Below, piece by piece: positions 10,991 to 25,904 of a stretch of DNA of 32,000 nt (positions are counted from its first letter, which is position 1; each line of letters begins with the position of its first letter). This DNA comes from Ruminococcus albus 7 = DSM 20455. Its GTDB lineage: Bacteria; Bacillota; Clostridia; Oscillospirales; Ruminococcaceae. The stretch spans positions 1-32,000 of the forward strand of contig NC_014824.1 of assembly GCF_000179635.2 (NCBI RefSeq), in the 5' to 3' direction. The notes under the pieces are model-generated. The model had not been told where the DNA came from, made no database searches, and saw only the letters and a list, made by a program, of their open reading frames with translations. The translations under genes and the position numbers were made by a program.

Positions 10991-11030
10991 ATATTTGTAG
11001 AAAAAATAACACACTGAGGAGGTGATACTA

Positions 11031-11522: not shown

Positions 11523-11592
11523 TACATTACCGAGGATGTAATAACAATCTGCTGTCTCTCGGATATAGACAGTATTTAAATGAGGTGGAAAC

Positions 11593-12426
11593 ATGGCAAA
11601 GGCCAATTATATTTCTTTTTTAGGTCAGATCTTGAATGATCCGCAGCTTAAGATGAATTCGAATTCGGAAATCTTTCAGGGCCGATTGGTCATGAAAGTC
11701 GTAAGGCGTTTTGTTGATGAAAACAGAAGGATCGAGTTTTCTGACCCTATAATCGTTACCGGAAACCCCAAAGTGGCTAAAATGATGACAAATCTTAAAA
11801 AGTGGGATATTTGCTCCTTAAAAGGGGTGCTCACAACAATGAATGTTACCCGTTCATGGATCTGTCCTGAGTGCGATTATACAAATCAGCCTGTTGGTAT
11901 GTATACTTTAATCACTCCTATCTTTATGGAAAAAACCATGGATATGTCACAGGCGTTTTCGTCTTCTGATGAGAGAGATCAGCTTTGCGAAGCGGAAGGC
12001 ATTAAGATACTTAAATCTCACAACGAAGTCTCCAATATAATACATGTTATCGGTACTGTTTGTAAAATGACCGAACTTTACGATAACGGAACTTCGGCTA
12101 CACTTAACTTTCAGATCGCTGTTAATCGTAGTTTCCGACTGATAGAAGGCGATCCGGATATCAGAACGGATTATCCTTGGGTAAAGCTTCATGGAGATAA
12201 AGCAAGAGAAGCAGCAAGAGTTCTTAGTGTAAATTCAACCGTATTTATTGACGGATCTATTTTTACAAAGATGGTCCAGAAGAAAACATACTGTGAAAAA
12301 TGCGGCAACGAACACGTTATAAATGAGCTTGTTACCGAGATACATCCGTACTCCGTGGAATATCTGCATAACTGTAATCTTCCTGCTGATGAATATACCG
12401 AAGACTATACTGATTTCCCCGGATAA
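11593..12426 (+). CDS. Putative ssDNA-binding protein with two tandem OB-fold-like halves, each followed by a CxxC pair, 277 aa
   Basis: The N-terminal half NYISFLGQILNDPQLK...RLVMKVVRR...IIVTGNPKVAKMM..LKKWDICSLKGVLTT follows the SSB strand pattern and ends in CPEC. The second half IIHVIGTVCKM...ATLNFQIAVNRSF...VKLHGDKAREAA..L..NSTVFIDGSIFT ends in CEKC. It sits in the replication neighbourhood. The fold assignment comes from pattern only. Confidence 0.45.
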   Translation: MAKANYISFLGQILNDPQLKMNSNSEIFQGRLVMKVVRRFVDENRRIEFSDPIIVTGNPKVAKMMTNLKKWDICSLKGVLTTMNVTRSWICPECDYTNQPVGMYTLITPIFMEKTMDMSQAFSSSDERDQLCEAEGIKILKSHNEVSNIIHVIGTVCKMTELYDNGTSATLNFQIAVNRSFRLIEGDPDIRTDYPWVKLHGDKAREAARVLSVNSTVFIDGSIFTKMVQKKTYCEKCGNEHVINELVTEIHPYSVEYLHNCNLPADEYTEDYTDFPG

Positions 12427-12443
12427 CGAAAGGATGTGCTGAA

Positions 12444-13277
12444 ATGGCTAATCTTCTTAACGAAAGACTTAATTTGGATAATGATGATACACCAAAGAAG
12501 AAAAAAACAAAAAAAATAAAAAGAAAAAAAACTGAACCACAAAGCCAAATAATAAAACCTATAAATAAAAATGAAGTATTAGAAAAAAATAATAACTCTA
12601 TTTATGACGAAGAACTGGAAGCGTTGACCGCGGATGAATACATTCGTGAGCAAAAAGCGATCAAAAAAAGCAATAGAAAAATTTACTTTACGAAAATCTT
12701 TATGTGTTTTATGTGCGCGTATCTGCTTTTCTTGATATACGGCGTAATGGTAACAAACTACGATTACGACGAAAAGGGAAATGTTACTGCGCAGATATTA
12801 AGCATAGAGGATATACAAAATCAGAATGAATATTCAGCTCTTATGGGCTATTATATAGAAGCACGAAACATTTATGAAAAAATACTTATTTTGAATTATC
12901 GTTATGATCAAAGCGAAGAAGATGCACTTGATCTTGTGCCTGAGTATGAAACGGTGCTTGAAGATGTAAATAAGCTTATAGTTCAACTAAAAGCAGTTAC
13001 TCCCTCAAAGCAGTATTCTCAGGCTTACTCACTTTTGATCAGTTGGGTAGATACGGACATTGCATCTTTTTTACAGGAAATTTCTGCAGCTATCTCGCAA
13101 AATAATGCGGAACATATGCAGAATGCAATAAATGATAAAACAAGAACATATAATGACTGCCATCAGCTTACAGCTAATATGATAAGCCTTGGTGAACATG
13201 TAAAGGGCGTAAGTATTTCTGAACTGAAGGAGTGGTCTCCTGAAGAATTTTTAAAGAAAGAAATGGGTGATGTCTAA
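12444..13277 (+). CDS. Hypothetical membrane protein with a Lys-rich N-terminus and one TM, 277 aa
   Basis: Long ORF in the operon frame. N-terminus KKKKTKKIKRKK. TM segment IFMCFMCAYLLFLIYGVMV. No recognisable domain. Confidence 0.5.
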   Translation: MANLLNERLNLDNDDTPKKKKTKKIKRKKTEPQSQIIKPINKNEVLEKNNNSIYDEELEALTADEYIREQKAIKKSNRKIYFTKIFMCFMCAYLLFLIYGVMVTNYDYDEKGNVTAQILSIEDIQNQNEYSALMGYYIEARNIYEKILILNYRYDQSEEDALDLVPEYETVLEDVNKLIVQLKAVTPSKQYSQAYSLLISWVDTDIASFLQEISAAISQNNAEHMQNAINDKTRTYNDCHQLTANMISLGEHVKGVSISELKEWSPEEFLKKEMGDV

Positions 13278-14786
13278 GTGTCGGCATATAATGATCTGCT
13301 TAATAAGTACAATACTCTGGTAGCTAGATGCCAGTCCCTGCAGGAAACACTGATAAGTAAGGAACAGCAGTGGAATATAGAAGCGGAAGAACATAAAATC
13401 GTAGAAGATAATATAAAAAAATTATGCATACTAATTCTGGCAAAAGATAAATCGCAGATAAATCTCGGTTCAAACAGTGGCTCATGGAACGCTTGTCAGA
13501 TAAGAGATCTGATCATCCAATCAATCGACAGCTATAAAAAATACAACCGGGAAAGATCATTAACTCTACAACAGTTGCTGGATCTTGCGGAAGAAAAACA
13601 ACATACTATCGATGGATTAATAGACGAACTGGAATTCTATAAAAACAACAGCGGGAAAAACGTTGACTACGCAGAAGAAAAGGAATCGAAGGCAAAGGAA
13701 AAAGCTCTCGAAGAGGCGATTGAAGGGCTTGATTTTGAGGAGAAGCAGAAGATAAAAAACAATAACGCTAATATTCAGCTCATCGACAATGAATCCGGAG
13801 TGAGTGACCTTATTCTTGATGCGATGGAAGAACTGGATACATTTATGCCAACCGAAAAATCTGTTCCGATCAAAGATTCCAACGGAAAGATCGCTTTGGC
13901 AAGAGAAAAAAAGCGTCAAAATAACGTTGTAAAAAAATTTGCATCCGAAATGGATGTCGGGAGAGTTCTGAATGATCTGTCTCCTGTTCAAAAAGACATC
14001 ATCACTATAATAGGCGAAAAGGGTTTATCCGAAAATATGGAAATAATCCAGGAGTTGTACAAGGATGAAAAAAACAAGACAAAAACAAAAGATAGCTTAA
14101 GTTCTATGATATACACAGCAGAAAGGGAATTACAGGCAACCGGTGTTATAATTTCGGAAAATACAGCTATTCCTCTTGTAGGAAAAGCAAATGTCAAGAT
14201 AATAAGAATGACAGAACTTGGAAACCGACTGTATTCTATGATGCATAACAAAAAGCCTGTTATTTCCGAAGCAAACAGACTTCAGGCAGAACATGATAAT
14301 ATCCATCATGGGTATGGTATTAAAGCTATCTCGCAAAGTATGCAAAGCTGTGATCTTTACTCGCATGTAAGCATGGATTGCCGAAGAGATCCGTTTATAG
14401 TTGATAAAAACAAAAATAGAAATGTAACATACATTCCTGATATAATTGCTGTTTACAAAAATGGTGACGAAAAATGCTACTTTGAGTATGAAAGATGTAG
14501 TCGTCCCGATGATGTAATTGCTGAAAAATGCAATAAAATGTGTCATTTTACACGAAACATGTATTTTCTGACCAACAATAGTAACCACGCTAATAATTTA
14601 GCTAAACAGCTTACAAAATGGAAAAAAGAAGCTGCTAAAAGAAAAATTAAAGCCAAGATCTTTTTATCTACAGTAAAAAGTTTTCAAGCTAATAATTTTG
14701 ACATAAAGGAAAAATGGCAGTTTTATTGGGGTGACAATGACATTGAACCAATAACGGAAACGAAAGTAGATATGCCCGATAATTAA
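13278..14786 (+). CDS. Coiled-coil protein with a wHTH-like middle and a PD-(D/E)xK-like C-terminal motif (replication-relaxation-like?), 502 aa
   Basis: GTG start directly abuts the upstream TAA, and there is no in-frame ATG for about 180 codons. The C-terminus NIHHGYGIK...YIPDIIAVYKNGDEKCYFEYERCS...EKCNKM fits the restriction-endonuclease-fold pattern H...PD...ExE/K. The functional call is tentative. Confidence 0.45.
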   Translation: MSAYNDLLNKYNTLVARCQSLQETLISKEQQWNIEAEEHKIVEDNIKKLCILILAKDKSQINLGSNSGSWNACQIRDLIIQSIDSYKKYNRERSLTLQQLLDLAEEKQHTIDGLIDELEFYKNNSGKNVDYAEEKESKAKEKALEEAIEGLDFEEKQKIKNNNANIQLIDNESGVSDLILDAMEELDTFMPTEKSVPIKDSNGKIALAREKKRQNNVVKKFASEMDVGRVLNDLSPVQKDIITIIGEKGLSENMEIIQELYKDEKNKTKTKDSLSSMIYTAERELQATGVIISENTAIPLVGKANVKIIRMTELGNRLYSMMHNKKPVISEANRLQAEHDNIHHGYGIKAISQSMQSCDLYSHVSMDCRRDPFIVDKNKNRNVTYIPDIIAVYKNGDEKCYFEYERCSRPDDVIAEKCNKMCHFTRNMYFLTNNSNHANNLAKQLTKWKKEAAKRKIKAKIFLSTVKSFQANNFDIKEKWQFYWGDNDIEPITETKVDMPDN

Positions 14787-14840: not shown

Positions 14841-15020
14841 ATGGCTGATATAATTCATTCATTTATAGCGTTCAATGTTAACGCGTTCAATCATCTTGTA
14901 TATTTACTCTCTCAGAATATCTCTATTATCATTATTCTGATTGCTGCCGTTCTAACGGCTGTTTTATCGCTCAAGGATGTCGTAGTTAAGTCTACCCGTG
15001 ATCAGAGACCAATGATTTAA
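14841..15020 (+). CDS. Small single-TM hydrophobic peptide, 59 aa (missing from the ORF track because it is under 60 aa)
   Basis: ATG 14841 follows AAAGGAGAA (14825-14833). Hand translation: MADIIHSFIAFNVNAFNHLVYLLSQNISIIIILIAAVLTAVLSLKDVVVKSTRDQRPMI, with TAA at 15018-15020. It fills the otherwise empty gap between P6 and the next gene. Confidence 0.5.
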   Translation: MADIIHSFIAFNVNAFNHLVYLLSQNISIIIILIAAVLTAVLSLKDVVVKSTRDQRPMI

Positions 15021-15035
15021 TAAGGAGTGATAAAT

Positions 15036-15554
15036 ATGAAAGGTGTTAATAAAGAAGTATACAAAGAGCCCATGACATCTCAGGAAGCAACTGCTTATAT
15101 AAAAGCCATTGGTTATCCTGTATTGATACTGCTCTTGTCGATGTTTTCTATAAGTGTTTTTTCCGGATTCGGCACAAGACTTATCGCTCCATTGACAGCC
15201 GCAATGTGGGGAGTGGGTGTGATCGGAGCTCTTGTATTAAAATCGATGAGAAAAGAAATCTTAAAAGAAACGCTTGCTTTTATCGGTATTTATCAGACAA
15301 CTCTCCTCGGATGGAGAGAGGCTATAAAGTTAGTATCGAACGTATCCACTGAGCAGATCATGGCATCCTATAATCAAGTGATATCGTTAAACCAGAGTTC
15401 TGCATTGCCCGGATACCTTCAAACGGCACTATGGGCGACAACGATCCTTGTGCCGGCGGGTTTTCTCGGAAGAGAAGCAACGCGAATATATAGGTTTACT
15501 AAAAAAACAGACAAAAACAAAGCTTTGAATCAAGTTCGTGGCATCAGACCATAG
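15036..15554 (+). CDS. Polytopic membrane protein (2-4 TM), 172 aa
   Basis: Start refined to ATG 15036 (AAGGAG at 15022-15027). TM segments: YPVLILLLSMFSISVFSGF, LIAPLTAAMWGVGVIGALVL and LQTALWATTILVPAGFLG. TAG stop. Confidence 0.6.
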   Translation: MKGVNKEVYKEPMTSQEATAYIKAIGYPVLILLLSMFSISVFSGFGTRLIAPLTAAMWGVGVIGALVLKSMRKEILKETLAFIGIYQTTLLGWREAIKLVSNVSTEQIMASYNQVISLNQSSALPGYLQTALWATTILVPAGFLGREATRIYRFTKKTDKNKALNQVRGIRP

Positions 15555-15569: not shown

Positions 15570-18500
15570 ATGGCTTTAACAGTATTTGATATCAAAAGAA
15601 TATTACAGCCTAAAATCTCAACTATGCCTTCTGATGATTTCAGGATCATTGATTCTTGGGTAGAAGTCGATGAAAATTCATCCAAATCTGTTCCCAAACG
15701 ACCGATCAAATATCTCTGTTTTAAGATAGAGGTCATTAATCCCGGAAACGGTGAAAAAAACACTATTTATAAAGCACTAAAATTTTACAGAGTTAAAAGA
15801 CTGCCTAAGTCCTCAAAAGAATCAAAAACCTTTATGGATATGCACTCACAGGTTTTGGCAGCTCTTTACGAAAATGAGATCAATTTTGTAACTATAATAG
15901 CAAATATCATGGATCCTCCGTTAGGACTGCTTTTCCTGTACGGTGTTCAGGGCGTTTCAAAAGATCTCGAAGAAGCAAAAATGATAGCGGATACAGATTA
16001 TGTATCTCTCGGTGCAGCGCTGCAGGGAACGTATAAAGTTCTTCATATGTCTCACATAGAACAGCAGGAGACCGAATGGCTGAGACAAAAGATGTTCAAT
16101 ATGGAATACCTGACTGCTGTAAGAGGTATCCCGAAGGCGAATTCTCTTGGTGTTAGTGTTTCAAAAACGACAATGGATAATAAACCCCAGAATCCCGACG
16201 GAACAGGCACACTTGAGGAAATAATTCTCGGTATGTCTGATTATGAGTATGTAATTCAGATTCTTTCAACTCCTGTTAAGATGGATACCTTGACAGCCTG
16301 GAGCATGGCAAACCAGATGAACATGACTGAATGGAATGAACAGCTGCAGGGTACTAAAAGTCTTAATTTTTCGCTTAGTATCCCTATGATGTATATGGCA
16401 AATACATCAAATTCTAAGGGATGGAATCAAGCATATTCTGATTCCTCAACTTTGTCTCACGGTACCGGACAGTCCTTTAATACCGGCTATGGTGAGAACC
16501 TCAGTAATGGTTTGAGCATGAATTATGGTCAGGCTATAGGTCAGTCTTCCGGTCATTCGTTTTCTAATACCATTTCCAACACTGAATCCATATCTCAAAG
16601 TGTAAGTCACGGTCAATCTCTGACTCACAGTGTCGGAGAAAGTCTCGGGCTTTCTCAGGGGCATACACAGGGCCTTACTCAGGGCGTTTCAGAAAATTTT
16701 GGTCATAATACATCCAACAGTCTTAATCACAGTATAAGCAATAATGTGTCCAACAGTTTCGGATTGAGCCAAAATCATGGCTATTCTCACGGAAATTCCG
16801 TAAATATCGGGGAAAGTATCAATCAAAGTGCCGGAATTTCAGAGGGGTATGGTGCTAGTATATCTCAGAATTCCAGTCATTCGCTAAATCACGGTTCGAG
16901 TATCAATAGCTCGATATCTCAATCACAGGGCTTTAGCCAGAGTCAATCATATAATCAATCCCTTGGTCAGTCATCCTCAATGTCCAACTCTATTTCAAGC
17001 GGCAGATCTATGAATTTCGGTCATGGTGAAAGTTGGAACGAAGGTCAGAATTTTTCTCATGGTAATTCTTTGACTTCATCCGAAGGACAGAGCTATGGTC
17101 ATAGTGCAAACTCAGGCAGCAGTTGGAATAATTCGGAAGGATTCTCGGATGGATGGTCGCATGGATCATCCATGAATTCAGGAACATCATCAGGAAGTTC
17201 TGTTAGTTCCGGTTCATCGGAAAACAGCGGTTTATCCAATTCTGTGTCGAATAATGTTTCGCTGGGAATCGGTCCGGTCAACAGCAGTGGCGGCGACGGA
17301 CAGAATTTTTCATCTTCGTCAGGCTACTCTTCCAGCACTTCTGAAAATTTGGGCCACAGCACGGGGTACGGTACAAGTGATTCGAATAATTATGGTCATA
17401 ACAATAGCTTCAGCAATGGTGGTTCTTTCTCCCAGGGCGAAAATTGGGGTGCAAGCAGTTCTTTATCTCAAGGAATGTCCACAAGCGAAGGCTTGAGTTT
17501 CGGTCATGGCGGTTCGATAAATGAATCATATGGCTTTAATTCATCGCAGTCACAGGGTATCACAAACGGTACATCCTTTAGCCAGTCGATTGGTACAGGT
17601 CAATCATTATCCAGTACTCAAGGCATTTCAAACGGATGGGGTCAGAGCTATTCATACGGTGAATCTGCTGGCATGGGCGTTTCTCAGAGTCAGAATCAGG
17701 GATTCTCTCAGAGTTATGGTTCAGGGTCATCCTTTAGTCAGGGTGACAGCCAATCTATATCGGAATCCGTTGGAACGTCTCAAAGCCAGTCTGTCGGCTC
17801 CGGAGAATCGTGGGGTCTTGGTCAGTCGGAAGGTTTTTCCGAAAGTATGGGATATTCAAGATCTGCGTCCGATTCCGTATCTCAGTCTGTTACAAATAGT
17901 ATTTCAAACTCCGATAGCTTCGGAAGATCTATTTCACAGTCTCAGGGTTATTCTCAGGGTATAAGCAGAGGAATGTCTCTCGGAGAAACATCATCACAGT
18001 CATACACACAGAATGTTTCTCAGGGTGCATCAATGAGCACCGGATCCAGTAAATCTGTTTCACAGGGACAGAGTATTTCGGAAAGCAATGGAAGAAGCTT
18101 AGGTCAGTCTATGGGTACTTCAGGTGCTTTTGCGACATCAACCGGCGGATCTATGGGACTCGGCCCTTCGATAAGCTATGGTAAATCTTATCAGTGGCTT
18201 GATCAGCAAGTTAAAGACATTCTGGAAATTCTCAATTATGAGAATGAAAGACTAAAAAATGCTTTAAAAGGTAACGGTGCATTTTACACTGACGTTTATA
18301 TTGCGTGTACGTCACAGGATGCACTTGCAGCAGCAAAAGCTCTCGCCAAGTCATCTTGGCAAAACGACCAGGCACTTAGAATGCCTATTCAAGTTCTTGA
18401 CCTTGAATCAGAAGAACAGAGACATCTGCTTTATCATTTTAGCGCTTTTTCGGCGGATATTACAAGGACTTCGGTGTACGGAGTATCTGAATACAAATAT

Positions 18501-20015
18501 ACTACAGTTTTGCTACCAAGTGAACTTGTAGCATATACTCATCCACCGAGAGCTTCGGAAGGCGGTATTTACAGCGATGTAAATGACGTTCCTAAATTCG
18601 CCGTACCTTCGATGATGCAGGGTGAGATATACATGGGTACGATTCTTTCTGCTGAAAGATGGACTATAAACAACGGGTATAAAACGCCGTTTGATTATAG
18701 AATAGATGAATCTATGCTTATGCACGGTTATTTTACAGGTCAGTCAAGATCCGGTAAAACCGTAGCTGCAATGAGATTCATTGCCGAACTATCAAGAGCG
18801 AGAAGAAAGCAAACAGGAAAGCGTTTTAGAATAGTATGTATGGATCCTAAATCTGATTGGAGATCACTTGCAAGGTTCGTCGAGCCCGAAAGATTCAATT
18901 TCTACAGCCTTGGCAATCCGAATTTCCATCCGATTCATTTTAATCCGTGTAAGATACCATACGGTGTTTTCCCGCAGAAATGGGTAGACGGTCTTATCGA
19001 GATCTTCTGCCGTGCTTACGGGCTCCTTGAAAGAGGTAAACAAATCATGGCTGAAACTATTTTTGCTCTTTACAGAAAAGCAGGAGTTTTTGATGCCTTG
19101 GACGATCCTAATTGGAAGGATGTAGTGCCGGAACTTTCCAAGAAGGTGACTTTCAAGAAGATCTACAAGCATATGGAATCATGCAAGATCGCTCTTGATG
19201 ACTCTAGCAATCCTAAAGGCAGAGCCGGAAACGACACAAGAGACGCTTATTCAAGAATTCTTGAACGTCTGTCATGCTTCGGAAGAGAATATTCGATAGA
19301 ATCGAAACTTTTCGGAGAAGAAGATGGAATGGGAATAGATGATCTGATAGGAGACGATGATATCACAGTTCTTGAATCCTCGGGGCTGGAATCAACTTTC
19401 TCCAACTTCATATTCGGTGTAATAACATCAGGATTCTATCAGTATGGTAAAGCTCAGGAAGGAGGCTATAAAGCTCCTGATCAGTATGAAACAATACTGG
19501 TCATAGAGGAGGCAAATAAAGTCCTTACAGGTAATGATACAGCAGGTACAGGGGGAGGTTCATCGTTGAGCCTCGGCGGACAATCTGAGTTTGAAGAAAT
19601 ACTTGACCAGTCAGCCGGCTATGGTCTGTTTGTAATTGCTATAACACAGAAAATAGCTGACATGCCATCCTCGATCATGGCAAATGCAGGTCTTGTGTTT
19701 GCGGGACGTCTTAAGAGAGTAGAGGATATAAATGTAGTAATCAGAACGATAGCGCGTGAAGAGAAGTTTGAAGATCGTGACATAGTTAAGTGGTTCCCAA
19801 GATCACCTACAGGTTGGTTTATTTGCCAGACATCACGAGGTTATGACTTTTTGGACGCCGAACCCGTTCTTGTTAATATCGCTCCGCTTAACTTTGATCC
19901 GCCTACAAATGATGAGATAGATGAAGTTCTGACACGTAAAAAGATAGATATCATGCTTCGCAACAATGCAAGGAACGATGCACTCGATCATTCTCAGATC
20001 TCGGTTACAGTTTAA
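15570..20015 (+). CDS. Giant HerA/FtsK/VirB4-superfamily (DUF87/AAA_10-like) P-loop ATPase split by a low-complexity domain of about 590 aa, 1481 aa
   Basis: AAAGGAGA RBS. Globular N-terminal region, aa 1-277. Low-complexity region, aa 278-874. In the C-terminal part: Walker A GQSRSGKT (aa 1057-1064), then RIVCMDPKSDW and HPIHFNP, Walker B ILVIEEANK (aa 1309-1317, HerA-type hhhhEEAH/N) and FVIAITQKIADMPSSIMANAG (HerA/FtsK-like sensor region). Confidence 0.8.
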   Translation: MALTVFDIKRILQPKISTMPSDDFRIIDSWVEVDENSSKSVPKRPIKYLCFKIEVINPGNGEKNTIYKALKFYRVKRLPKSSKESKTFMDMHSQVLAALYENEINFVTIIANIMDPPLGLLFLYGVQGVSKDLEEAKMIADTDYVSLGAALQGTYKVLHMSHIEQQETEWLRQKMFNMEYLTAVRGIPKANSLGVSVSKTTMDNKPQNPDGTGTLEEIILGMSDYEYVIQILSTPVKMDTLTAWSMANQMNMTEWNEQLQGTKSLNFSLSIPMMYMANTSNSKGWNQAYSDSSTLSHGTGQSFNTGYGENLSNGLSMNYGQAIGQSSGHSFSNTISNTESISQSVSHGQSLTHSVGESLGLSQGHTQGLTQGVSENFGHNTSNSLNHSISNNVSNSFGLSQNHGYSHGNSVNIGESINQSAGISEGYGASISQNSSHSLNHGSSINSSISQSQGFSQSQSYNQSLGQSSSMSNSISSGRSMNFGHGESWNEGQNFSHGNSLTSSEGQSYGHSANSGSSWNNSEGFSDGWSHGSSMNSGTSSGSSVSSGSSENSGLSNSVSNNVSLGIGPVNSSGGDGQNFSSSSGYSSSTSENLGHSTGYGTSDSNNYGHNNSFSNGGSFSQGENWGASSSLSQGMSTSEGLSFGHGGSINESYGFNSSQSQGITNGTSFSQSIGTGQSLSSTQGISNGWGQSYSYGESAGMGVSQSQNQGFSQSYGSGSSFSQGDSQSISESVGTSQSQSVGSGESWGLGQSEGFSESMGYSRSASDSVSQSVTNSISNSDSFGRSISQSQGYSQGISRGMSLGETSSQSYTQNVSQGASMSTGSSKSVSQGQSISESNGRSLGQSMGTSGAFATSTGGSMGLGPSISYGKSYQWLDQQVKDILEILNYENERLKNALKGNGAFYTDVYIACTSQDALAAAKALAKSSWQNDQALRMPIQVLDLESEEQRHLLYHFSAFSADITRTSVYGVSEYKYTTVLLPSELVAYTHPPRASEGGIYSDVNDVPKFAVPSMMQGEIYMGTILSAERWTINNGYKTPFDYRIDESMLMHGYFTGQSRSGKTVAAMRFIAELSRARRKQTGKRFRIVCMDPKSDWRSLARFVEPERFNFYSLGNPNFHPIHFNPCKIPYGVFPQKWVDGLIEIFCRAYGLLERGKQIMAETIFALYRKAGVFDALDDPNWKDVVPELSKKVTFKKIYKHMESCKIALDDSSNPKGRAGNDTRDAYSRILERLSCFGREYSIESKLFGEEDGMGIDDLIGDDDITVLESSGLESTFSNFIFGVITSGFYQYGKAQEGGYKAPDQYETILVIEEANKVLTGNDTAGTGGGSSLSLGGQSEFEEILDQSAGYGLFVIAITQKIADMPSSIMANAGLVFAGRLKRVEDINVVIRTIAREEKFEDRDIVKWFPRSPTGWFICQTSRGYDFLDAEPVLVNIAPLNFDPPTNDEIDEVLTRKKIDIMLRNNARNDALDHSQISVTV
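16401..18191 (+). repeat. Cryptic 6-nt-periodic coding repeat encoding ([S/G/N/T/A]-X)n, in two arms separated by a one-residue register slip at Gly568-Pro569
   Basis: Hand parse of the translation. From N278 to I567 every first dipeptide position is S, G, N, T or A (about 145 dipeptides). G568-P569-V570 then shift the register by one residue. From N571 to Y874 the rule holds again (about 152 dipeptides). Confidence 0.85.
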
Positions 20016-20136: not shown

Positions 20137-20898
20137 ATGTCAAAATCTCATAAAATTACCATTCTTTTGATCTTGGCGGTCATATCTGCAATAGTTACTG
20201 GTACTTTGATCTATAAGTACTGCAATTCAACCAAAGGCTTTATTTACGTATTTAATGATGATTATAAAGCCGGCGCAAAGATCGAAAAGAGTATGCTTTC
20301 GCCTATGAAGGTTGACGATCAGATAATCAAGACAGGACAAAAGGGAGGTCTTGAAAGCTACTACATAACCGGTGAAAATTACTCTAAGGTCGTAGAACGT
20401 AATGAGTATCTGCTTAACGATGTTGTGAAAAATCAGCCGCTGACACTCGTAGATCTTGCTATGACGAGCGGTTCGAGTATTGAAAGGTCGCTGTCCGGCA
20501 ACGGAATGGCTGTTACTATCCCTATATCCGGAACAGCTGCTGTTACGGACGAATTAAGAGTCGGTTCTGTTGTCAACATTTATTCAAGCGACGCAAGTGG
20601 AACAAAACTCTTGTTTGAAAACATGAGAATAATTGCCAGAAATAATGAAAACTCTGTATCCAAGGTGACATTTGAAACATCACCGGATGATACATTAGAT
20701 CTTATAAATGCAGCAAACAACAAAAAACTTTACTTCTCACTGGTATCACCTGTACTTGATGAAAATGCTCATTCGGGCTATGTGGTAACGGAAGAAGAAA
20801 AGGAAGAATCCATTATTATAAATGATAATGATCCTGATTATACCGAAGATGTTCAGATCCCGGAGGATAATCTTCCTGAGGATACATCATCTAAATAA
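20137..20898 (+). CDS. cpaB: CpaB/RcpC-like Flp pilus assembly protein, 253 aa
   Basis: N-terminal TM (ITILLILAVISAIVTGTLIY). A SAF-like stretch IYVFNDDYKAGAKIEKSMLSPMKV. The segment GMAVTIPISG...LRVGSVVNIYSS resembles the CpaB core. First gene of the Tad operon. Confidence 0.6.
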   Translation: MSKSHKITILLILAVISAIVTGTLIYKYCNSTKGFIYVFNDDYKAGAKIEKSMLSPMKVDDQIIKTGQKGGLESYYITGENYSKVVERNEYLLNDVVKNQPLTLVDLAMTSGSSIERSLSGNGMAVTIPISGTAAVTDELRVGSVVNIYSSDASGTKLLFENMRIIARNNENSVSKVTFETSPDDTLDLINAANNKKLYFSLVSPVLDENAHSGYVVTEEEKEESIIINDNDPDYTEDVQIPEDNLPEDTSSK

Positions 20899-20920
20899 AT
20901 CTTTAACGGAGGGATTTAAT

Positions 20921-22462
20921 TTGAATAAAGTACTGATAGTAGATAACAGAGCAGCTTATTATCAAAACATTAAAACAAGAATCGAAATAAGTGATGAACT
21001 TGAACTCGATGCAGAAATTTTCCTGTATACTGATTACAGCGAATTCCAGGAGCATATTACAAAGAATCACTATGACATGATAGCTGTGGTAAGCGGAGTT
21101 ATAATGTCTGATGATTTTGTGATACCGGCTGAGCAGAAACTCCTTGGATATCTTGAAAGGAAAAATTCCGATAATTCTATTTTTGTTAATAGCGGTATTG
21201 TTGATCTCGGCTATTTCAATGATTCGTTTGAAATGCTTCAAACGCTTGAAAAAATGCAGCCGAACGATGCTGAAATAAAAAATGAAACCAAAAATGAAAC
21301 TCCTGTAACAGCTTTATCAGTAGAAAACACAAACGCAGAAACAACTATAAAGCCTGATGCAGAGGAAGTAAGAGGAATAAGAAGTGAAACAAAAGCAGAA
21401 AATGCGGCTGAAAAAGCTTTTTTCTGTTCGAACTGCGGAATGAAATTACTGCCGGAAACTAGATTCTGTCATATATGCGGAACTCCTGTAGACGATGCTG
21501 ATGCTATGATACGAAATGCGGCTATAGACAGAGATGATCGCACGGATGATATTGAAAAACTTGTAGCTGAAGATCTCAAACTCCAGCGCCATCAATGTAA
21601 AGTGGTATCATCTTATGCTGCTAAAGGCGGTGTTGGCAAGACAACTATTGCCGCAAATCTGGCAGTACTTCTGGCACGTACTACTACAGACAGACGCAAA
21701 ACCAGGGTGTGTATCGTAGATTTCAATATTGATTTTGGAAACATTCGGACTACACTGAATTTCTCGCGTAAGGATGTAACAATGATCGACTGGCTTGCTA
21801 ACATCGATGCAAAAATCGGTGAAGGTATAGACCCAAAGGAAATAAAATATTCAAAGGAAGAGATCGAGTGTTTCCTGCAAAAGAAATCTTTTAAGAAAAC
21901 CTTGAGTAATGACGAAACCGAGATCTATGGTCTTATTGCTCCGCTTATACATAAAGATTCCATGGGCATACCCGAAAAAAGCTTTGAAGTAATGCTGAGA
22001 AATCTAAAAGAAAACGGCGATTTTGATTATATAATCTGTGATACAGGCAACAATACCCGTGATTCGTCTTTTACGGCGCTCGAACTTTCGGATAAAATTC
22101 TGCTTATAGCTACTCAGGACGTTACGACTGTAGATTGCAATGACAGTTTCCTTAAGACCATGGATGAAATATCTGATTTTGATAAAGGAAAAGTTTATCT
22201 GGTTATAAATAACATTATATCTGCAAAAGAAACAGGCGTTTCAGTAAAGGATATAGAAGAGGCAGTGCCGGAATTTCCGTGTATTGGAAGGATCAGAAGA
22301 AATACAAGTGTAACTCTTGCTAATAATAAGGGTATCCCTGCGGCTCTTGACTCGGGTGCTCCGTTTACGAGGGAGCTTTCTGAGATAGTATCAGCCATAA
22401 TCGATGAAGATCTTGAGATCAAGCCGAAGAAAAAAGGTATTTTTTCATTCTTGAGGAAATAA
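20921..22462 (+). CDS. tadZ: TadZ/CpaE-like pilus-localisation ATPase (pseudo-receiver N-domain, inserted zinc ribbon, MinD/ParA-type ATPase), 513 aa
   Basis: Start refined to TTG 20921 (GGAGGG at 20909-20914). The track start at 20822 overlaps cpaB. MNKVLIVDNRAAYY... is receiver-like. Zinc ribbon CSNCGMKLLPETRFCHICG. Deviant Walker A SYAAKGGVGKTTIAANLA. Walker B-like YIICD. Confidence 0.75.
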   Translation: MNKVLIVDNRAAYYQNIKTRIEISDELELDAEIFLYTDYSEFQEHITKNHYDMIAVVSGVIMSDDFVIPAEQKLLGYLERKNSDNSIFVNSGIVDLGYFNDSFEMLQTLEKMQPNDAEIKNETKNETPVTALSVENTNAETTIKPDAEEVRGIRSETKAENAAEKAFFCSNCGMKLLPETRFCHICGTPVDDADAMIRNAAIDRDDRTDDIEKLVAEDLKLQRHQCKVVSSYAAKGGVGKTTIAANLAVLLARTTTDRRKTRVCIVDFNIDFGNIRTTLNFSRKDVTMIDWLANIDAKIGEGIDPKEIKYSKEEIECFLQKKSFKKTLSNDETEIYGLIAPLIHKDSMGIPEKSFEVMLRNLKENGDFDYIICDTGNNTRDSSFTALELSDKILLIATQDVTTVDCNDSFLKTMDEISDFDKGKVYLVINNIISAKETGVSVKDIEEAVPEFPCIGRIRRNTSVTLANNKGIPAALDSGAPFTRELSEIVSAIIDEDLEIKPKKKGIFSFLRK

Positions 22463-22474
22463 GGAGAAGTCAAA

Positions 22475-23800
22475 ATGAGCCTTATTGAAAAAATAATTAA
22501 TAAAGCCGAAAAAGAAAAACAGAGCTTGGCCGATAAAATACAGTCAGAATCCGTTATTCTTGATTCACAACAGCAGGATACAGCCAATGCCTTGATAAAA
22601 GAGATCAGTTCCGAAAACTTCGACACTATCACTTTGAAAGGTATTGATAATTCGGTTAATGAACTGAAAGATCAGCTTCATAAAAAAATTGAAGCACTGG
22701 ATGTTTCATATGAGGAAAAGCTGAAGCTTGAAAAGAACATTGCTGCGAATATATCAGGCCTGGGTCCTCTTGAAGAATTTATGTCAGATCCGGATATCAC
22801 CGAAATAATGGTCTTGCGATATGATCATGTCGTTATCGAGAAGAACGGTGAGAAGATCAATACCGACGTCAAATTCCAGTCCGAACTGCATCTTGTAAAC
22901 GTGATCCAGCGTATAGTTCAGCCAATAGGCAGACAGATAAATCTCTCTACACCAATCGTTGATGCGAGATTGTCTGATGGTTCTCGTGTAAATGCGACGA
23001 TACCGCCCGTATCCGTGGATGGAGCAACTTTAACTATTAGAAAATTTTCTAATAAAGCTTTGACCGGAGAAGATTATCTCAAGCTCGGTACATTAAATCA
23101 GGAAATGCTTGATTTTCTTTGTGCTGCAGTAAAAGGGAAGGCAAATATAATCGTATCCGGCGGAACAAATACGGGAAAAACTACGCTTTTGAATATGCTT
23201 TCGGGTTTTATCCCGGAAGAAGAAATGGTAATTACAATAGAAGATTCATGTGAGCTTCAGCTCAAATCTCCGAATGTAAGAAGACTTGAAGCTAAAGATT
23301 CTCTGGCTACAGACAGAGTGATGAAGATAGATATAAAAGCCTTGGTAAAAAACTCTTTGAGAATGAATCCTGACAGGATAATTGTCGGAGAGATACGTGA
23401 CGGGACGATCGTTGATATGATATCTGCCATGAGTACCGGTCATGAAGGTTCAATGTCTACGACTCATGCTAATAGTCCTGCCAATCTTGTCAATTCGAGG
23501 ATCCCGATTTTTTATAGTATGGCTAATGCAAGCTTTACCGCTGAAACACAAGCACTTCAGGTAGCAGAAGCACTGGATCTTATCGTTCAGATAGGATTCA
23601 GAAATAAAAAAAGAGTCATAACACATATAACAGAAGTTTCGGGTGCTTCAGATTACAGGATAAACCTCAAAGATATTTTTACTTATGACTCAAACGGAGG
23701 TTTCTCCGCAACAGGATACGTTCCCAAAACATTATTATCCAGACTCAAAGCGTATGGTTCTGAGATTGATGAAAAAGTATTCGACCCCAAAAAATCGTAA
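22475..23800 (+). CDS. tadA: CpaF/TadA secretion ATPase (T2SSE family), 441 aa
   Basis: Motifs: GLGPLEEFMSDPDITEIMV, Walker A SGGTNTGKTTLLN, Asp box/Walker B PDRIIVGEIRDG, His box GHEGSMSTTHANS. Confidence 0.9.
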   Translation: MSLIEKIINKAEKEKQSLADKIQSESVILDSQQQDTANALIKEISSENFDTITLKGIDNSVNELKDQLHKKIEALDVSYEEKLKLEKNIAANISGLGPLEEFMSDPDITEIMVLRYDHVVIEKNGEKINTDVKFQSELHLVNVIQRIVQPIGRQINLSTPIVDARLSDGSRVNATIPPVSVDGATLTIRKFSNKALTGEDYLKLGTLNQEMLDFLCAAVKGKANIIVSGGTNTGKTTLLNMLSGFIPEEEMVITIEDSCELQLKSPNVRRLEAKDSLATDRVMKIDIKALVKNSLRMNPDRIIVGEIRDGTIVDMISAMSTGHEGSMSTTHANSPANLVNSRIPIFYSMANASFTAETQALQVAEALDLIVQIGFRNKKRVITHITEVSGASDYRINLKDIFTYDSNGGFSATGYVPKTLLSRLKAYGSEIDEKVFDPKKS

Positions 23801-23817
23801 AAGGAAAGAAGGATACA

Positions 23818-24696
23818 ATGTATTACGCTATTTTTTTCGCCGGATTATCTGTTATACTGATATTTCTCGCAGTTATAATAAATGTTAGGGAAAAGAAAAA
23901 TATCATAAATAAAAAAGATGCTGATTTTATTGATATTTTTATAGAAAAGAAAAAACAGTATCTAGCGTCAATTCCCGGTGCAATGTCGATCAAAACATAT
24001 TTGATTTTGATGTTATTTTTCCCTTTGACCGGTTCTGTTGGGGCATGGTTCTTGAGTAAAGAGTTGTGGCTTTCGATCATTATCTTTTTTGTCGGTCTGT
24101 TTATTCCGAAATTTATAGTAAGCTATACTGAAAAAAAGCATAAGAAAAATTTTGAAGAGAGATACGCAAGAGCATTACGTCAATTATCCAGCTCTTTAAG
24201 AGCCGGAATGACGTTACAGCAGGCTGTGGAAGATCTCTGTAAATGTCCGTTTATCCATTATGAGATAAAAAAAGAATTCAGACAGATAAATTCGGATATT
24301 CAGCTTGGATTCTCAATATCAGAAGCTTTTGGACACATGGCGGAAAGGATACCGACCGCTGATGTAAAAGATGTTGTTTCTGCGATCAAGATGCAAAGTT
24401 TGGTAGGCGGATCTGAAGCGGAATCAATAGAGATCATAACAAATAACATAAACTCCAGAATGATGCTTCGCAAAGAAATAAAAACCTTGTTTGCAAGCAC
24501 TAAAATGACAATAATAGGAATGGATATTCTTCCAGCTATTATTATATTATTTCTGTATTACTCTTCCCCAATGTATTTTAGACCTTTGTTTTCAACGCTT
24601 ATAGGGCGTTTGGTCTTTGTACTTGCTATCATCTTAATGGTGATCGGAAGCTACATTGACAGAAAATTCCTAAATCGAGTAAAGGGGGTAGATTAA
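23818..24696 (+). CDS. tadB: TadB-like inner-membrane platform protein (T2SSF domain), 292 aa
   Basis: N-terminal TM, a cytoplasmic T2SSF-like stretch LRQLSSSLRAGMTLQQAVEDL and C-terminal TMs. It follows tadA. Confidence 0.75.
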   Translation: MYYAIFFAGLSVILIFLAVIINVREKKNIINKKDADFIDIFIEKKKQYLASIPGAMSIKTYLILMLFFPLTGSVGAWFLSKELWLSIIIFFVGLFIPKFIVSYTEKKHKKNFEERYARALRQLSSSLRAGMTLQQAVEDLCKCPFIHYEIKKEFRQINSDIQLGFSISEAFGHMAERIPTADVKDVVSAIKMQSLVGGSEAESIEIITNNINSRMMLRKEIKTLFASTKMTIIGMDILPAIIILFLYYSSPMYFRPLFSTLIGRLVFVLAIILMVIGSYIDRKFLNRVKGVD

Positions 24697-25557: not shown

Positions 25558-25574
25558 AAAATTTTTTATTTTCA

Positions 25575-25591
25575 AAATTTTCTGCTATAAT
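25575..25591 (+). promoter_or_regulatory. Recurrent promoter motif copy P8 (AAATTTTCTGCTATAAT), pilin operon
   Basis: Perfect consensus copy 49 nt upstream of the flp ATG. No hairpin terminator lies between tadC and this site. Confidence 0.6.
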
Positions 25592-25639
25592 AAATAGGGA
25601 AACCTTTATAACATATAATTTTCAAAAGGAGAGATTATA

Positions 25640-25900
25640 ATGAAAGATTACGCAAAAAGATTTTTTAACGAAGAAGAAGGAGAGGAAGGTGCTGAATTCC
25701 TCGAATACGCAGTTATTATAGGTCTGTCGGCTATACTTATAGCTGTAATAATTGTTGTAGTTATGGTCGTAAAATACAAGGGTTTAAAATCTGCCAAAAA
25801 AATCGATGAAGCAGGCAATGACTCTACTGCTGTAGATTGGGATGCTGCTCTCGGAGACAAAGACAAGGAAGTAAACGATGCCTTGAAGAATCTGGATTGA
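25640..25900 (+). CDS. flp: Flp-family (type IVc) prepilin, 86 aa
   Basis: AAAGGAGAG RBS. The leader MKDYAKRFFNEEEGEEG is followed by AEFLEYAVIIGLSAILIAVIIVVVMVV, which gives the Flp processing motif G/XXXXEY and then a hydrophobic helix. Confidence 0.75.
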   Translation: MKDYAKRFFNEEEGEEGAEFLEYAVIIGLSAILIAVIIVVVMVVKYKGLKSAKKIDEAGNDSTAVDWDAALGDKDKEVNDALKNLD

Positions 25901-25904
25901 TAAT

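Follow-up and report, generated by a model that had tools for sequence, protein, structure and literature searches.

A serine-rich NF033849-family protein of Ruminococcus albus 7 with two length-matched dipeptide-repeat arms and a HerA-like ATPase module

The window, by which we mean the whole stretch of DNA analysed (32,000 nucleotides from Ruminococcus albus 7 = DSM 20455, contig NC_014824.1), contains a gene for a 1481-aa protein, preceded by genes for an SSB-domain protein, a 502-aa protein and small membrane proteins and followed by a Tad/Flp pilus locus. The features are:

11593..13277, + strand: SSB-domain protein (277 aa; Pfam SSB, E = 3e-9) and a 277-aa single-TM protein, assigned from its TM helix and synteny
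13278..14786, + strand: 502-aa protein with a coiled coil, a wHTH-like region and a PD-(D/E)xK-like C-terminus
14841..15020, + strand: 59-aa ORF with a hydrophobic, TM-like stretch in its translation
15027..15554, + strand: small membrane protein of 175 aa with at least two TM helices by hydropathy
15570..20015, + strand: whole gene, NF033849 "serine-rich protein", a 1481-aa ORF comprising an N-domain, two putative β arms and a HerA-like ATPase
15570..16400, + strand: N-terminal domain, aa 1-277, ending in a conserved LSIPMMYMAN motif at the base of arm 1
16401..17273, + strand: arm 1, aa 278-568, 146 dipeptides [S/G/N/T/A]-X in even register with a His-rich X face
17256..17300, + strand: apex or tip, aa 563-577, SLGIGPVNSSGGDGQ, holding the register slip P569-V570
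17280..18191, + strand: arm 2, aa 571-874, 152 dipeptides in odd register, terminating in the conserved motif SMGLGPSISYGKSY
18192..20012, + strand: C-terminal module, aa 875-1481, with a long helix, a poorly modelled region and a HerA-clade RecA-like core
18738..18761, + strand: Walker A, GQSRSGKT, aa 1057-1064
19494..19511, + strand: Walker B, ILVIEE, aa 1309-1314, read from the sequence
20137..26920, + strand: Tad/Flp pilus locus, downstream, identified by Pfam and NCBIfam

The 502-aa neighbour is syntenic in 20 of the fetched loci and has the invariant columns HGYGIK..PD..ExE..K; its resemblance to Replic_Relax is weak (E = 0.05 here; matches in 2/16 homologues, best E = 0.007). Gene calls on three independent contigs include the same 59-aa ORF, and plasmid pB6464 has a 66-aa gene in its place. 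The 175-aa membrane protein lies directly upstream of the gene in about 20 homologous loci and has no family match. The Tad locus encodes CpaB, a TadZ/ParA-like ATPase with a zinc ribbon, CpaF, TadB and TadC, together with a Flp-like 86-aa ORF, an A24 prepilin peptidase and TadE, an order that pB6464 and most homologous loci share. The Tad locus is absent near the homologues at L027 and L031, and only the ParA-like gene is kept at L017 and L022. The 1481-aa protein itself matches no Tad component, and its tie to Tad is one of conserved, though not universal, adjacency. As a whole, the module (SSB, the PD-(D/E)xK/Replic_Relax-like protein, two to three small membrane proteins and usually then the Tad locus) keeps its gene order across families and classes: pB6464, a plasmid of 436 kb, and about 25 genomes share it. 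In Clostridia and Bacilli, it is conserved on large plasmids or mobile elements.

The protein is a full-length member of NCBIfam NF033849 (ser_rich_anae_1), scoring 1615.6 bits over its whole length against a curated cut-off of 650. The profile has 1163 positions, of which 1-233 are matched by the N-domain alone (335 bits) and 589-1163 by the C-domain alone (933 bits). The protein is thus already catalogued through a curated model, yet it is uncharacterised: the family name reflects composition alone (the pB6464 orthologue is annotated "serine-rich protein" in RefSeq), and the literature searched yielded no description of the register, matched arms, ATPase fold or function of NF033849. The preliminary description of this DNA had considered that the region might be a mis-assembly or a frameshifted pseudogene. 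This is not so, since 22 contigs from independent sequencing runs call an identical 1481-aa product and the DNA lacks long repeats; Tandem Repeats Finder reported two 12-nt arrays only, of ≈3 copies each, and dispersed DNA repeats are ≤29 nt long and 64-94% identical. The gene is neither an assembly artefact nor a recent DNA repeat. The N-domain is conserved in 178 library proteins, mostly fragments cut within the repeat, and the full-length proteins listed among its relatives are 1018-1864 aa long. Likewise, most of the homologues found, 89 for the C-domain and 43 for the N-domain, are fragments that end inside the repeat. Because the repeat breaks short-read assemblies, the family is under-represented and mis-called in metagenomes. 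No phage relatives of the protein were found.

The N-domain has no Pfam match and no PDB sequence match, and AlphaFold2 (AF2) modelled it as α/β with a pLDDT of 55-80. The C-terminal module was modelled from a 47-sequence MSA with a pLDDT of 79 and a pTM of 0.73, and the fold of its C-terminal ≈450 aa matched HerA-clade translocases with a Foldseek probability of 1.0. Against the PDB, Foldseek returned 132 matches at E ≤ 1e-3, headed by the C-domain of DndH (7es4; E = 8e-15, TMt 0.72) and including anti-phage HerA and TdpA at 1e-12 and Sulfolobus HerA (4d2i) at 1.4e-11. In the C-domain alignment A2 (47 sequences), Walker A residues G183, G188, K189 and T190 are invariant and R186 and S187 nearly so, while in the Walker B region E433 and T434 are invariant and E439 is nearly invariant; in alignment A1, all six Walker A positions (G183, R186, S187, G188, K189, T190) are invariant. 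The Pfam DUF87 model (PF01935) remained sub-threshold (12.6 vs. 23.2 bits, E = 0.15), so that HerA-clade membership applies at the level of the fold only. At that level, the model identifies the C-terminal module as a HerA-clade P-loop translocase. Among TraD, VirD4 and VirB4 models, the only response was noise (TIGR03743 SXT_TraD, E = 0.13, 10.7 bits vs. a cut-off of 366), and no structure of these proteins was among the best 50 Foldseek matches. The repeat had been described as an insertion in the middle of a P-loop ATPase. It does lie between the N-domain and the ATPase module, but not inside the ATPase fold, since the P-loop is wholly within the C-terminal 607 aa. No signal peptide was found at the N-terminus, which begins MALTVFDIKRILQP and is not hydrophobic, and an LPxTG-like motif and a TM helix are absent from the protein (maximum 19-residue hydropathy 1.56), whereas its conserved neighbours are membrane proteins.

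The repeat had originally been parsed by hand as a strict register of ≈145 + ≈152 dipeptides with a slip of exactly one residue at Gly568-Pro569. A scripted parity test reproduced this parse: S, G, N, T or A occupies 146/146 even positions of residues 278-568 and 152/152 odd positions of residues 571-873, with no violations in either arm, and the one-residue slip falls at G568-P569-V570. The bounds given for the repeat, 16401-18191, are also correct, as residue 278 begins at nt 16401 and residue 874 finishes at nt 18191. The small positions are made up of S70 G42 N24 T7 A2 in the 145 dipeptides of residues 278-566 (G568 is the 146th position) and of S84 G51 N10 T5 A2 in arm 2. In 30-aa windows, the in-register fraction was 1.0 across residues 301-870 and 0.93 in the window containing the slip, compared to out-of-register fractions of 0.07-0.47. 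When the same 597 residues were shuffled 2000 times, the longest alternating run had a mean of 12 and a maximum of 34, compared to 152 observed, in agreement with the original statement that the segment is far more ordered than ordinary low-complexity sequence.

The composition was likewise as first described. Lys, Pro and Cys are almost absent (Lys at 283, 828 and 872; Pro at 569 in the slip and 866 near the end; no Cys), and the X positions carry 15 His in arm 1, where more than a dozen had been noted, and three in arm 2; this excess of His in arm 1 recurs in 24/25 homologues. The FG-like units NFGH (twice), SFGL, SFGH and SFGR are all present, and hydrophobic and aromatic residues are found exclusively at X, the second position of the dipeptide. 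The small face of the window protein has 34 Asn and no Asp; pooled over 99 proteins, this face consists of S 0.45, G 0.30, T 0.13, N 0.07 and A 0.045. Hydrophobic X residues shun one another, with a lag-1 autocorrelation of -0.28, and the longest hydrophobic X run is ≤4 (24 proteins). Neither face of the repeat is hydrophobic, and the anti-clustering of hydrophobic X residues looks like negative design against aggregation. Gly has a periodicity of four residues, and no period >4 residues was found in the repeat, its identity autocorrelation to lag 40 showing the even/odd contrast only. A β-solenoid, one of the architectures initially suggested, or a β-helix is not supported, as the repeat has neither a 15-30-residue coil periodicity nor a hydrophobic interior face.

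The preliminary description had allowed that homologues might share this composition with no conserved register. Instead, the alternating register is kept in about 100 homologues, down to an N-domain identity of 21-25%. Across 25 homologues, the length of arm 1 ranges from 93 to 421 aa and that of arm 2 from 97 to 443 aa, and the two are closely matched (Pearson r = 0.992, slope 1.04; arm 2 minus arm 1 = +11 ± 8 aa) in what is a phylogenetically non-independent set, as it is for the Gly statistics below. Arm length spans a 4.5-fold range across the family; the shortest arms of the 22 named loci (47 + 49 dipeptides) belong to a wall-less Anaeroplasmataceae genome (n = 1). At the centre, most homologues have a Gly-rich stretch and a short hydrophobic/Pro junction in the same place (LKLV, IPVIG, LIIA, VPFI, IFVI, IPGVA, LPFG). 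Tip inserts in some relatives range from ≈140 aa to roughly 200 aa by eye, the former in L004, where the insert is irregular and the arms are still 138 and 134 dipeptides. Longer non-repeat tip stretches were also seen by eye in P0155, P0179 and P0181, and in the distant relative P0257, an R/E/H/T-rich centre replaces S-X.

The Gly pattern provides a second correspondence between the arms. In the window protein, arm 1 mirrors arm 2 at an offset of nine dipeptides (r = 0.38, Fisher OR 5.7, p = 1e-5). When all ≈100 ungapped offsets per protein were compared in the mirror and direct orientations, the best mirror match was the base-anchored, fully paired register in 19/24 proteins, and the mean top r was 0.45 for the mirror orientation vs. 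0.36 for the direct one (Wilcoxon p = 0.002), part of the signal stemming from a quasi-periodic G-x-S-x pattern. In the 20 proteins with the paired register as best offset, r by quarter from base to tip was 0.41, 0.52, 0.51 and 0.52, with pooled odds ratios of 6.6-11; local mirror and direct Gly correlations reach 0.5-0.7 at non-central positions. The hydrophobicity of the X face shows no correlation between arms. Since duplication or inversion of DNA cannot yield a mirror pattern at the protein level, the Gly mirror presumably reflects selection.

From these sequence patterns, the repeat most likely folds back on itself as a giant antiparallel two-stranded β-hairpin. Among the three architectures first put forward, the hairpin gains independent support from the arm lengths, the Gly mirror and the tip; a two-layer cross-β element is disfavoured, as neither face is hydrophobic and Gly would face Gly rather than a larger residue, and a glycosylated element like that of the serine-rich-repeat adhesins (SRRPs) does not fit a protein with no signal peptide, LPXTG or TM helix. 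The 596-residue segment would form a projecting arm of the NF033849-family protein, in which two matched β strands of ≈290-300 residues each run out and back in fixed register with a short Gly/hydrophobic tip. With the arms running out and back, the N-domain and the HerA-type ATPase would come together at the base. One face of such a ribbon would present nothing but residues that are small, polar and uncharged (S, G, T and N, with A rare), and the other non-clustered Q, H, E and T with isolated hydrophobic or aromatic residues.

Since neither face could form a hydrophobic core and HerA-clade ATPases form rings, lateral association of the hairpins would be the most economical arrangement. The hairpins of the ring might close into a water-filled β tube coaxial with the motor pore, in which six hairpins would contribute 12 strands and the small polar face would line the lumen. 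Barrel geometry predicts a Cα radius of ≈10.6 Å and a height of ≈0.26 nm per arm residue, corresponding to a tube roughly 75-80 nm high here and ≈25-110 nm across the family. The nearest alternative to a tube is a non-hollow bundle or stalk. Such a solid stalk or ruler, made of single or bundled hairpins that space the tip from the motor with no conduit, is rather unlikely in our estimate; it shares all but the lumen with the tube. It would fit the length matching about a conserved apex, the 140-250-aa domain that forms the tip in some relatives, the range of arm lengths, which suggests distance as a selected variable, and the short arms of the wall-less genome. However, a lone two-stranded ribbon with 300 residues per strand and no core is unlikely to be stable, and the exclusion of charge and bulk from an entire face is beyond the needs of a spacer.

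Alternatively, the segment could be a disordered low-complexity tether with the register a by-product of repeat expansion. The preliminary description had proposed structure prediction of the arms; strands were not obtained, as AF2 (monomer) of the short-arm family member P0004 gave the repeat as disordered coil with no secondary structure (pLDDT ≈22), in a run with a 35-sequence MSA that was uninformative within the repeat. The composition also resembles prion-like/FUS-type low-complexity domains, the length varies widely among homologues, and the layout of N-domain, ≈600-aa low-complexity region and HerA/FtsK-superfamily motor parallels that of E. coli FtsK, whose N-domain and motor are separated by a low-complexity stretch of ≈600 aa. 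However, disorder requires neither 298 in-register positions with no exception, nor arm lengths that co-vary (r = 0.99) about a conserved central tip, nor base-to-tip Gly mirroring, and there are no DNA repeats able to produce the pattern mechanically. We therefore regard a tether as quite unlikely. Matched arms with mirrored facing residues would likewise be needed in a β-arch, with the arms face to face, that stacks or condenses into a self-assembling cross-β, amyloid-like or gel element and clusters the ATPase. The S/G/N/Q-rich composition with spaced aromatic residues favours this option, which was raised at the outset, but it appears improbable: a hydrophobic face is lacking, the small face has little Ala where silk has dry Gly/Ala faces, and the hydrophobic X residues are anti-clustered. 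Gly opposite Gly would suit in-plane neighbours better than interdigitating faces, and 300-residue limbs would produce a fibril cross-section of ≈100 nm.

Returning to the hairpin, a role for the ATPase module in DNA transfer is inferred from the conserved plasmid context. In PLSDB, pB6464 is classed as non-mobilizable, meaning that it has neither a relaxase nor a mating-pair system of a known kind. SecA2/SecY2 accessory and glycosyltransferase genes were not found among the annotated genes of the window. The ATPase may dock on the membrane proteins, with the arm as an envelope-spanning conduit or stalk, in a DNA-transfer apparatus that would use the Tad pilus for cell contact. We hold at about even strength the overall explanation of a giant antiparallel β-hairpin arm, with the hairpins of a ring forming a polar tube or stalk and a presumed role in DNA transfer. 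A more specific version is possible but doubtful. Here, the hairpins of a hexameric HerA-type motor would form a continuous 12-stranded nanotube, tens of nm long and with Ser, Gly, Thr and Asn as its sole lining, through which the motor would push ssDNA or unfolded protein across the thick Gram-positive envelope, providing large plasmids of gut Clostridia and Bacilli with relaxase- and T4SS-independent transfer together with the Tad pilus. Several observations weigh against the overall explanation. No relaxase, VirB4 or VirD4 was identified in the window, some family members have no Tad locus beside them, and the proteins structurally nearest to the ATPase are HerAs of defence and repair. The absence of a hydrophobic belt anywhere in the arms argues against a bilayer-spanning barrel, and dsDNA does not fit through a barrel of 12 strands; since there is no export signal, an extracellular location would require some other route.

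The structural relatives of the ATPase (the top matches being DndH, TdpA and anti-phage HerAs), weak partial PADLOC matches of the C-domain to mad8, DndH and HerA (E = 1e-5 to 6e-4), the nuclease-like motif of the 502-aa neighbour and the lack of Tad genes at some loci could point to a plasmid-borne defence or DNA-repair HerA with a PD-(D/E)xK-like partner in the manner of HerA-NurA, Sir2-HerA, DUF4297-HerA and DndFGH, an arm serving as sensor or scaffold and an incidental Tad adjacency, but this is very improbable, given that the N-domain, the membrane proteins, the 502-aa protein and all other neighbours match no PADLOC defence model, that different families and classes have the SSB, membrane protein and Tad genes in one order, and that to our knowledge no known HerA system carries a comparable β arm, none having been found in the literature searched.

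The hexameric HerA-clade translocases (Sulfolobus HerA, Sir2-HerA, DUF4297-HerA, DndH, TdpA) share the fold and the Walker A and B motifs, but the present protein adds a 277-aa N-domain and a putative β arm of 200-860 aa, and its partners differ. For the arm, a comparison can be made with the stems of pore-forming toxins (α-haemolysin, aerolysin, anthrax PA), in which each protomer of a ring contributes one Gly/Ser/Thr-rich hairpin of strict two-residue periodicity with a Gly-rich tip; the lumen is lined by small polar residues, and the extramembrane stem of PA is soluble on both faces. Toxin strands are ≈15-40 residues long vs. 93-443 here, there is no sequence homology, and, unlike the toxins, the NF033849 protein has no hydrophobic belt or secretion signal and is fused to a motor ATPase. 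Rad50, SMC and MukB have a head split between N- and C-terminus and long matched antiparallel arms with a short apex or hinge. Arm length matching is common to both, but the arms here are of a dipeptide β type rather than heptads, and the N-domain has no recognisable ATPase half. SRRP adhesins (GspB, Fap1, SraP) and silk fibroin share Ser/Gly at every second position; their X positions are A/V/T, whereas those here are diverse, small-face Ala is rare, neither SRRPs nor silk have two matched arms, and a match to ClfA was compositional (21.8 bits vs. a cut-off of 1150). With regard to the module, the archaeal Ced system combines a HerA/VirB4-like ATPase, small membrane proteins and type IV pili (PMC9905601, PMC11868833), a combination of ATPase, small membrane proteins and pilus that is also found here. 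Ced and the Streptomyces TraB/FtsK-type DNA pumps are without a β arm like the one proposed for the present protein.

No counterpart of a giant two-stranded β-hairpin arm of this size was found in the literature searched, and a length-matched hairpin of this kind, if confirmed, would represent a structural principle with no described counterpart. Its strands would be 10-20 times longer than those of any pore-forming toxin stem, and it would be a Gly/Ser code, not a hydrophobic core, that keeps them in register. If they also form a nanotube, this would be the first β-strand counterpart of the length-matched coiled-coil arms of SMC and Rad50, and a protein nanotube that is long, uncharged and genetically tunable in length would be of interest for nanopore engineering. 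Closure of the hairpins on a translocase ring would constitute a new kind of conduit for macromolecules. Such a conduit could account for the cell-to-cell movement of the very large "non-mobilizable" plasmids of gut Clostridia, so that an unsolved problem of horizontal gene transfer in the microbiome would become accessible to direct tests.

The repeat lies in a single long ORF of 1481 residues (15570–20015, forward strand), where residues 278–874, encoded at 16401–18191 as originally placed, separate an N-terminal domain from a C-terminal module of 607 residues. The dipeptide register claimed for it in the preliminary description proved to be exact in a scripted parity test: all 146 even positions between residues 278 and 568 (arm 1) and all 152 odd positions between 571 and 873 (arm 2) are Ser, Gly, Asn, Thr or Ala, with no violations in either run; between the two runs, at G568-P569-V570, the register shifts by one residue. 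The longest alternating run, 152 positions, compares with a mean of 12 and a maximum of 34 in 2000 permutations of the same 597 residues. The domain is indeed far more ordered than ordinary low-complexity sequence. The composition described earlier was likewise borne out by counts: the repeat contains three Lys, no Cys and two Pro (at the slip and near the end), the alternate, variable positions (the X face) carry 15 His in arm 1 versus three in arm 2, and FG units occur as NFGH (twice), SFGL, SFGH and SFGR. On the in-register positions (the small face) there are 34 Asn and no Asp.

We considered the possibility that the region was mis-assembled. Twenty-two contigs, assembled from independent sequencing runs, code for the same 1481-residue product, and the repeat is thus not an assembly artefact. 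At the DNA level, the only repeats are two 12-nt arrays of about three copies each and imperfect matches no longer than 29 nt; since there are no further tandem or dispersed repeats, the pattern cannot be maintained by recent slippage. Most of the 89 matches to the C-terminal module and the 43 matches to the N-domain are fragments cut within the repeat, where short-read assemblies evidently break. Two homologous proteins, P0004 and P0005, have identical N- and C-domains; their repeats are single runs, of just 58 and 97 dipeptides, and lack a central tip. Both probably derive from one longer gene that collapsed during assembly.

Full-length homologues were taken from GTDB genomes (33 loci), from the Alkaliphilus plasmid pB6464 and from a representative library. 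All of them keep the strict two-residue register; the observation is real, exact and conserved. Pooled over 99 proteins, the small face consists of Ser (0.45), Gly (0.30), Thr (0.13), Asn (0.07) and Ala (0.045). In the 25 homologues in which both arms could be delimited, arm 1 spans 93–421 aa and arm 2 spans 97–443 aa, and the two lengths are almost perfectly correlated (Pearson r = 0.992, slope 1.04, mean difference +11 ± 8 aa). The centre is mostly a Gly-rich stretch with two to six hydrophobic or Pro residues, such as LKLV, IPVIG, LIIA, VPFI, IFVI, IPGVA or LPFG, corresponding to GIGPV in the target. At locus L004, the centre is occupied by an irregular insert of 140 aa, and the arms are still 138 and 134 dipeptides long; P0155, P0179 and P0181 also have central non-repeat inserts, of roughly 200 aa as judged by eye. 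Two distant members depart from the S-X pattern: in P0257 the arms are replaced by a centre of ≈580 aa rich in R, E, H, T and D, and in P0267 by a looser alternation of S, T, R, E and V. They may help to tell which features of the arm the protein can do without.

On the small face, Gly recurs every second dipeptide, in alternation with Ser, Thr or Asn (lag-1 autocorrelation −0.30). When arm 1 is read from its base and arm 2 backwards from its C-terminal end, the two Gly patterns of the target coincide at an offset of nine dipeptides (r = 0.38, Fisher odds ratio 5.7, p = 1e-5); in homologues, r for this mirror was as high as 0.70. An unbiased scan put the mirror centre no more than 15 aa from the domain midpoint in 52 of 72 proteins, compared to nine expected, a count that is inflated, because a quasi-periodic G-x-S-x sequence mirrors locally anywhere and because the z-score rises as more pairs are included, favouring central folds. 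With a fixed pair number, the result was 17 of 44 versus six expected, and in a control local mirror or direct Gly correlations were also high away from the centre. The scan was replaced by two other tests. Over all ungapped offsets (about 100 per protein), the best mirror offset was the base-anchored, fully paired register in 19 of 24 proteins, with r usually well above that of the next offset and of the best direct (parallel) offset; the mean r was 0.45 for mirror and 0.36 for direct pairing (Wilcoxon p = 0.002, p-values being tempered here by the non-independence of homologues). In the 20 proteins whose best offset was the paired register, quarter-by-quarter correlations from base to tip were 0.41, 0.52, 0.51 and 0.52, with pooled odds ratios of 6.6–11. 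Arm lengths range from 47 to 222 dipeptides; for the register to stay ungapped up to the tip, insertions in one arm must have been matched at the mirrored site in the other. Since no DNA-level process produces a mirror at the protein level, the Gly pattern reflects selection, and its simplest reading would be a physical antiparallel pairing of the arms. No cross-arm correlation of hydrophobicity, aromaticity or charge above |r| = 0.07 was found on the X face.

The target is a full-length member of the NCBIfam family NF033849 (ser_rich_anae_1, "serine-rich protein"; 1615.6 bits, cut-off 650), a name in use by RefSeq; a Pfam search with the whole protein gave no match. A literature search found no paper on the family, which is thus catalogued yet uncharacterised, and we could find no described counterpart of the arm. 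The C-terminal module, modelled with AlphaFold2 from an alignment of 47 sequences (pLDDT 79, pTM 0.73), matched the DndH C-domain (E = 8e-15), Sulfolobus HerA (E = 1e-11) and the anti-phage HerA and TdpA rings in a Foldseek search of the PDB. Its Walker A (GQSRSGKT) and Walker B (ILVIEE) motifs are conserved, and similarity to Pfam DUF87 is sub-threshold. The N-domain (the first 277 aa) matched no Pfam, NCBIfam, PHROG, PADLOC or PDB profile other than its own family model, NF033849. An exhaustive phmmer search of 1.8 billion representatives gave 178 relatives of this domain, most of them fragments cut in the repeat; the full-length ones (1018–1864 aa) carry it at the N-terminus, and this same architecture was the only one found. 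The repeat is therefore not inserted inside a P-loop ATPase, as first supposed, but lies between a domain that matched no profile beyond its own family and a HerA-clade motor. The target belongs to NF033849 and, at the level of fold, to the HerA clade, and to these only: it failed the tests for a solenoid, a type IV secretion ATPase, a PADLOC system and a Tad component, and also that for a serine-rich-repeat adhesin, having no signal peptide or LPXTG motif; nor was a transmembrane helix found. Among viral structures, the full-length family model matched only HerA/FtsK-type packaging ATPases. Two Bacillus phage proteins, the BFVD entries A7KUX5 and S5MSQ0 (802 and 913 aa, the latter from Bacillus phage JL), aligned over the whole length of the model at a low TM (0.29, E ≈ 1e-13); by this model comparison, they might be relatives that combine the N-domain with HerA and lack the arms. 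A phage origin of the target itself was rejected, there being no relatives in INPHARED or IMG/VR.

Hydrophobic residues on the X face avoid one another (lag-1 autocorrelation −0.28) and never form runs of more than four in 24 proteins, which led us to reject a lipid-embedded barrel along the arm. The small face is polar and carries no charge, Ala being scarce; from base to tip the composition hardly varies, and no periodicity beyond four residues was found. With anti-clustered hydrophobics, a polar small face and no longer period, a hydrophobic core is impossible on either face, which makes a solenoid, a sandwich and a dry steric zipper less likely. Of the folds suggested in the preliminary description, the β-solenoid is thus not supported, and the core-less faces also count against a two-layer cross-β element; the pairing of Gly with Gly would suit cross-strand neighbours in one plane better than faces that interdigitate. 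The giant β-hairpin has strong indirect support from the register, the matched arms and the Gly mirror, all of them properties of sequence. The hairpin model does not account for the charge asymmetry of the arms, in which His is in excess on the X face of arm 1 in 24 of 25 homologues, and Lys and Arg are usually commoner in arm 2 (21 of 25).

With a ring ATPase at the base, we propose that six such hairpins close laterally into a 12-stranded tube whose lumen is lined by the small face. Barrel geometry (a = 3.3 Å, b = 4.4 Å, n = 12, S = 12) would give a Cα radius of ≈10.6 Å, with room for ssDNA or an unfolded chain, not for dsDNA, and a rise of ≈0.26 nm per residue, or ≈77 nm for the target. 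The nearest alternative to the tube is a solid, non-hollow ruler or stalk, which would share the paired, length-matched arms and dispense with the lumen; we regard it as possible, if rather improbable. The AlphaFold2 monomer of P0004, a short-arm member (983 aa, alignment A4), represented the repeat as coil (pLDDT ≈22), with no usable covariation, and the first ≈170 aa of the C-module were likewise low-confidence coil. This result gives the arm no support and is the main reason for caution. A disordered linker would agree with the predicted coil, and is unlikely in view of the Gly mirror held up to the tip; a cross-β or gel-forming element, suggested in the preliminary description and opposed by the core-less faces, we hold to be just as doubtful. 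That the protein is a HerA of defence or repair, as its likeness to DndH and the anti-phage rings might indicate, is very improbable, given the failed PADLOC test.

The gene order around the target is conserved in pB6464 (436 kb, Alkaliphilus sp. B6464) and in about 25 genomes, from Lachnospiraceae, Oscillospiraceae, Ruminococcus, Anaerostipes, Fusicatenibacter and Blautia, and also Neobacillus and Cytobacillus. Cultivable hosts that are candidates for carrying the module include Anaerostipes hominis BG01, Fusicatenibacter saccharivorans AM67-22ACA and Neobacillus paridis, besides Alkaliphilus sp. B6464.

Conserved gene order, with positions in the window for three genes
1. DNA polymerase III alpha
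2. Lipoprotein
3. SSB-domain protein
4. 277-aa single-TM protein
5. 13278–14786, forward: 502-aa protein
6. 14841–15020, forward: 59-aa ORF (MADIIHSF...), unannotated-looking, with a hydrophobic TM-like stretch
7. 175-aa membrane protein
8. 15570–20015, forward: target gene
9. CpaB, TadZ-like ATPase, CpaF, TadB, TadC, Flp, A24 peptidase, TadE

The 59-aa gene was called identically in three independent contigs; its place in pB6464 is taken by a gene of 66 aa. The 502-aa protein has an N-terminal coiled coil, a wHTH-like middle and an invariant C-terminal HGYGIK..PD..ExE..K..K motif. It could not be assigned as a relaxase or nuclease, having only weak similarity to Replic_Relax (PF13814) and no match in the PDB; it is a candidate for the DNA-processing nuclease of the module. 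The TadZ/ParA-like ATPase (20822–22462, forward) contains an inserted zinc ribbon at residues 201–223; the longest ORF shares 77 nt with the end of the CpaB gene, and since gene calls made independently assign 513 aa to the protein, translation probably starts further downstream. The stretch at 73–10915 (forward) encodes the element's own replication set, namely two RecD2/YrrC-type helicases in tandem, a primase with a CHC2 zinc finger and a complete alpha subunit of DNA polymerase III; part of this set also occurs in pB6464, which suggests a large autonomous replicon. PLSDB typed pB6464 as non-mobilizable.

Tad genes are missing beside the copies in an Anaeroplasmataceae MAG (L027, none within 10 kb) and at L017/L022 and L031, leaving an invariant core of SSB, the 502-aa protein, a small upstream protein (the 175-aa homologue or an ORF of the same size) and the ATPase. 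The L027 protein (8657–11773, 1038 aa) has arms of 47 and 49 dipeptides, the shortest among the 22 named loci compared; that these occur in a wall-less host is suggestive, though it is one case only. Four representative proteins of ≈1040–1060 aa have arms about as short. Contigs of three further loci (L002, L024 and L028) were binned to Methanocorpusculum, Flavobacteriales and Bacteroides MAGs despite a Firmicutes-type gene, likely a mis-binning of mobile elements, or else very wide transfer. In the complete chromosome of Blautia producta DSM 2950 (L029, 10001–10579), the match covers only the last ≈200 aa of the C-domain and starts in an ORF of 80 aa; the gene apparently survives there as a decayed remnant.

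The proposed tube or stalk has analogies in known systems. Stems of β-barrel pore-forming toxins likewise contribute one alternating Gly/Ser/Thr hairpin per ring protomer, the arms of Rad50 and SMC proteins are length-matched, and the archaeal Ced apparatus resembles the module at the level of the whole system (PMC9905601, PMC11868833); the Ced papers were the only useful ones found, as an analogy. We infer that a giant antiparallel β-hairpin would project from a HerA-type ring docked on the small membrane proteins, and that the hairpins probably form a polar-lined tube or stalk, which would help to transfer the DNA of the element, contact being made by the Tad pilus.
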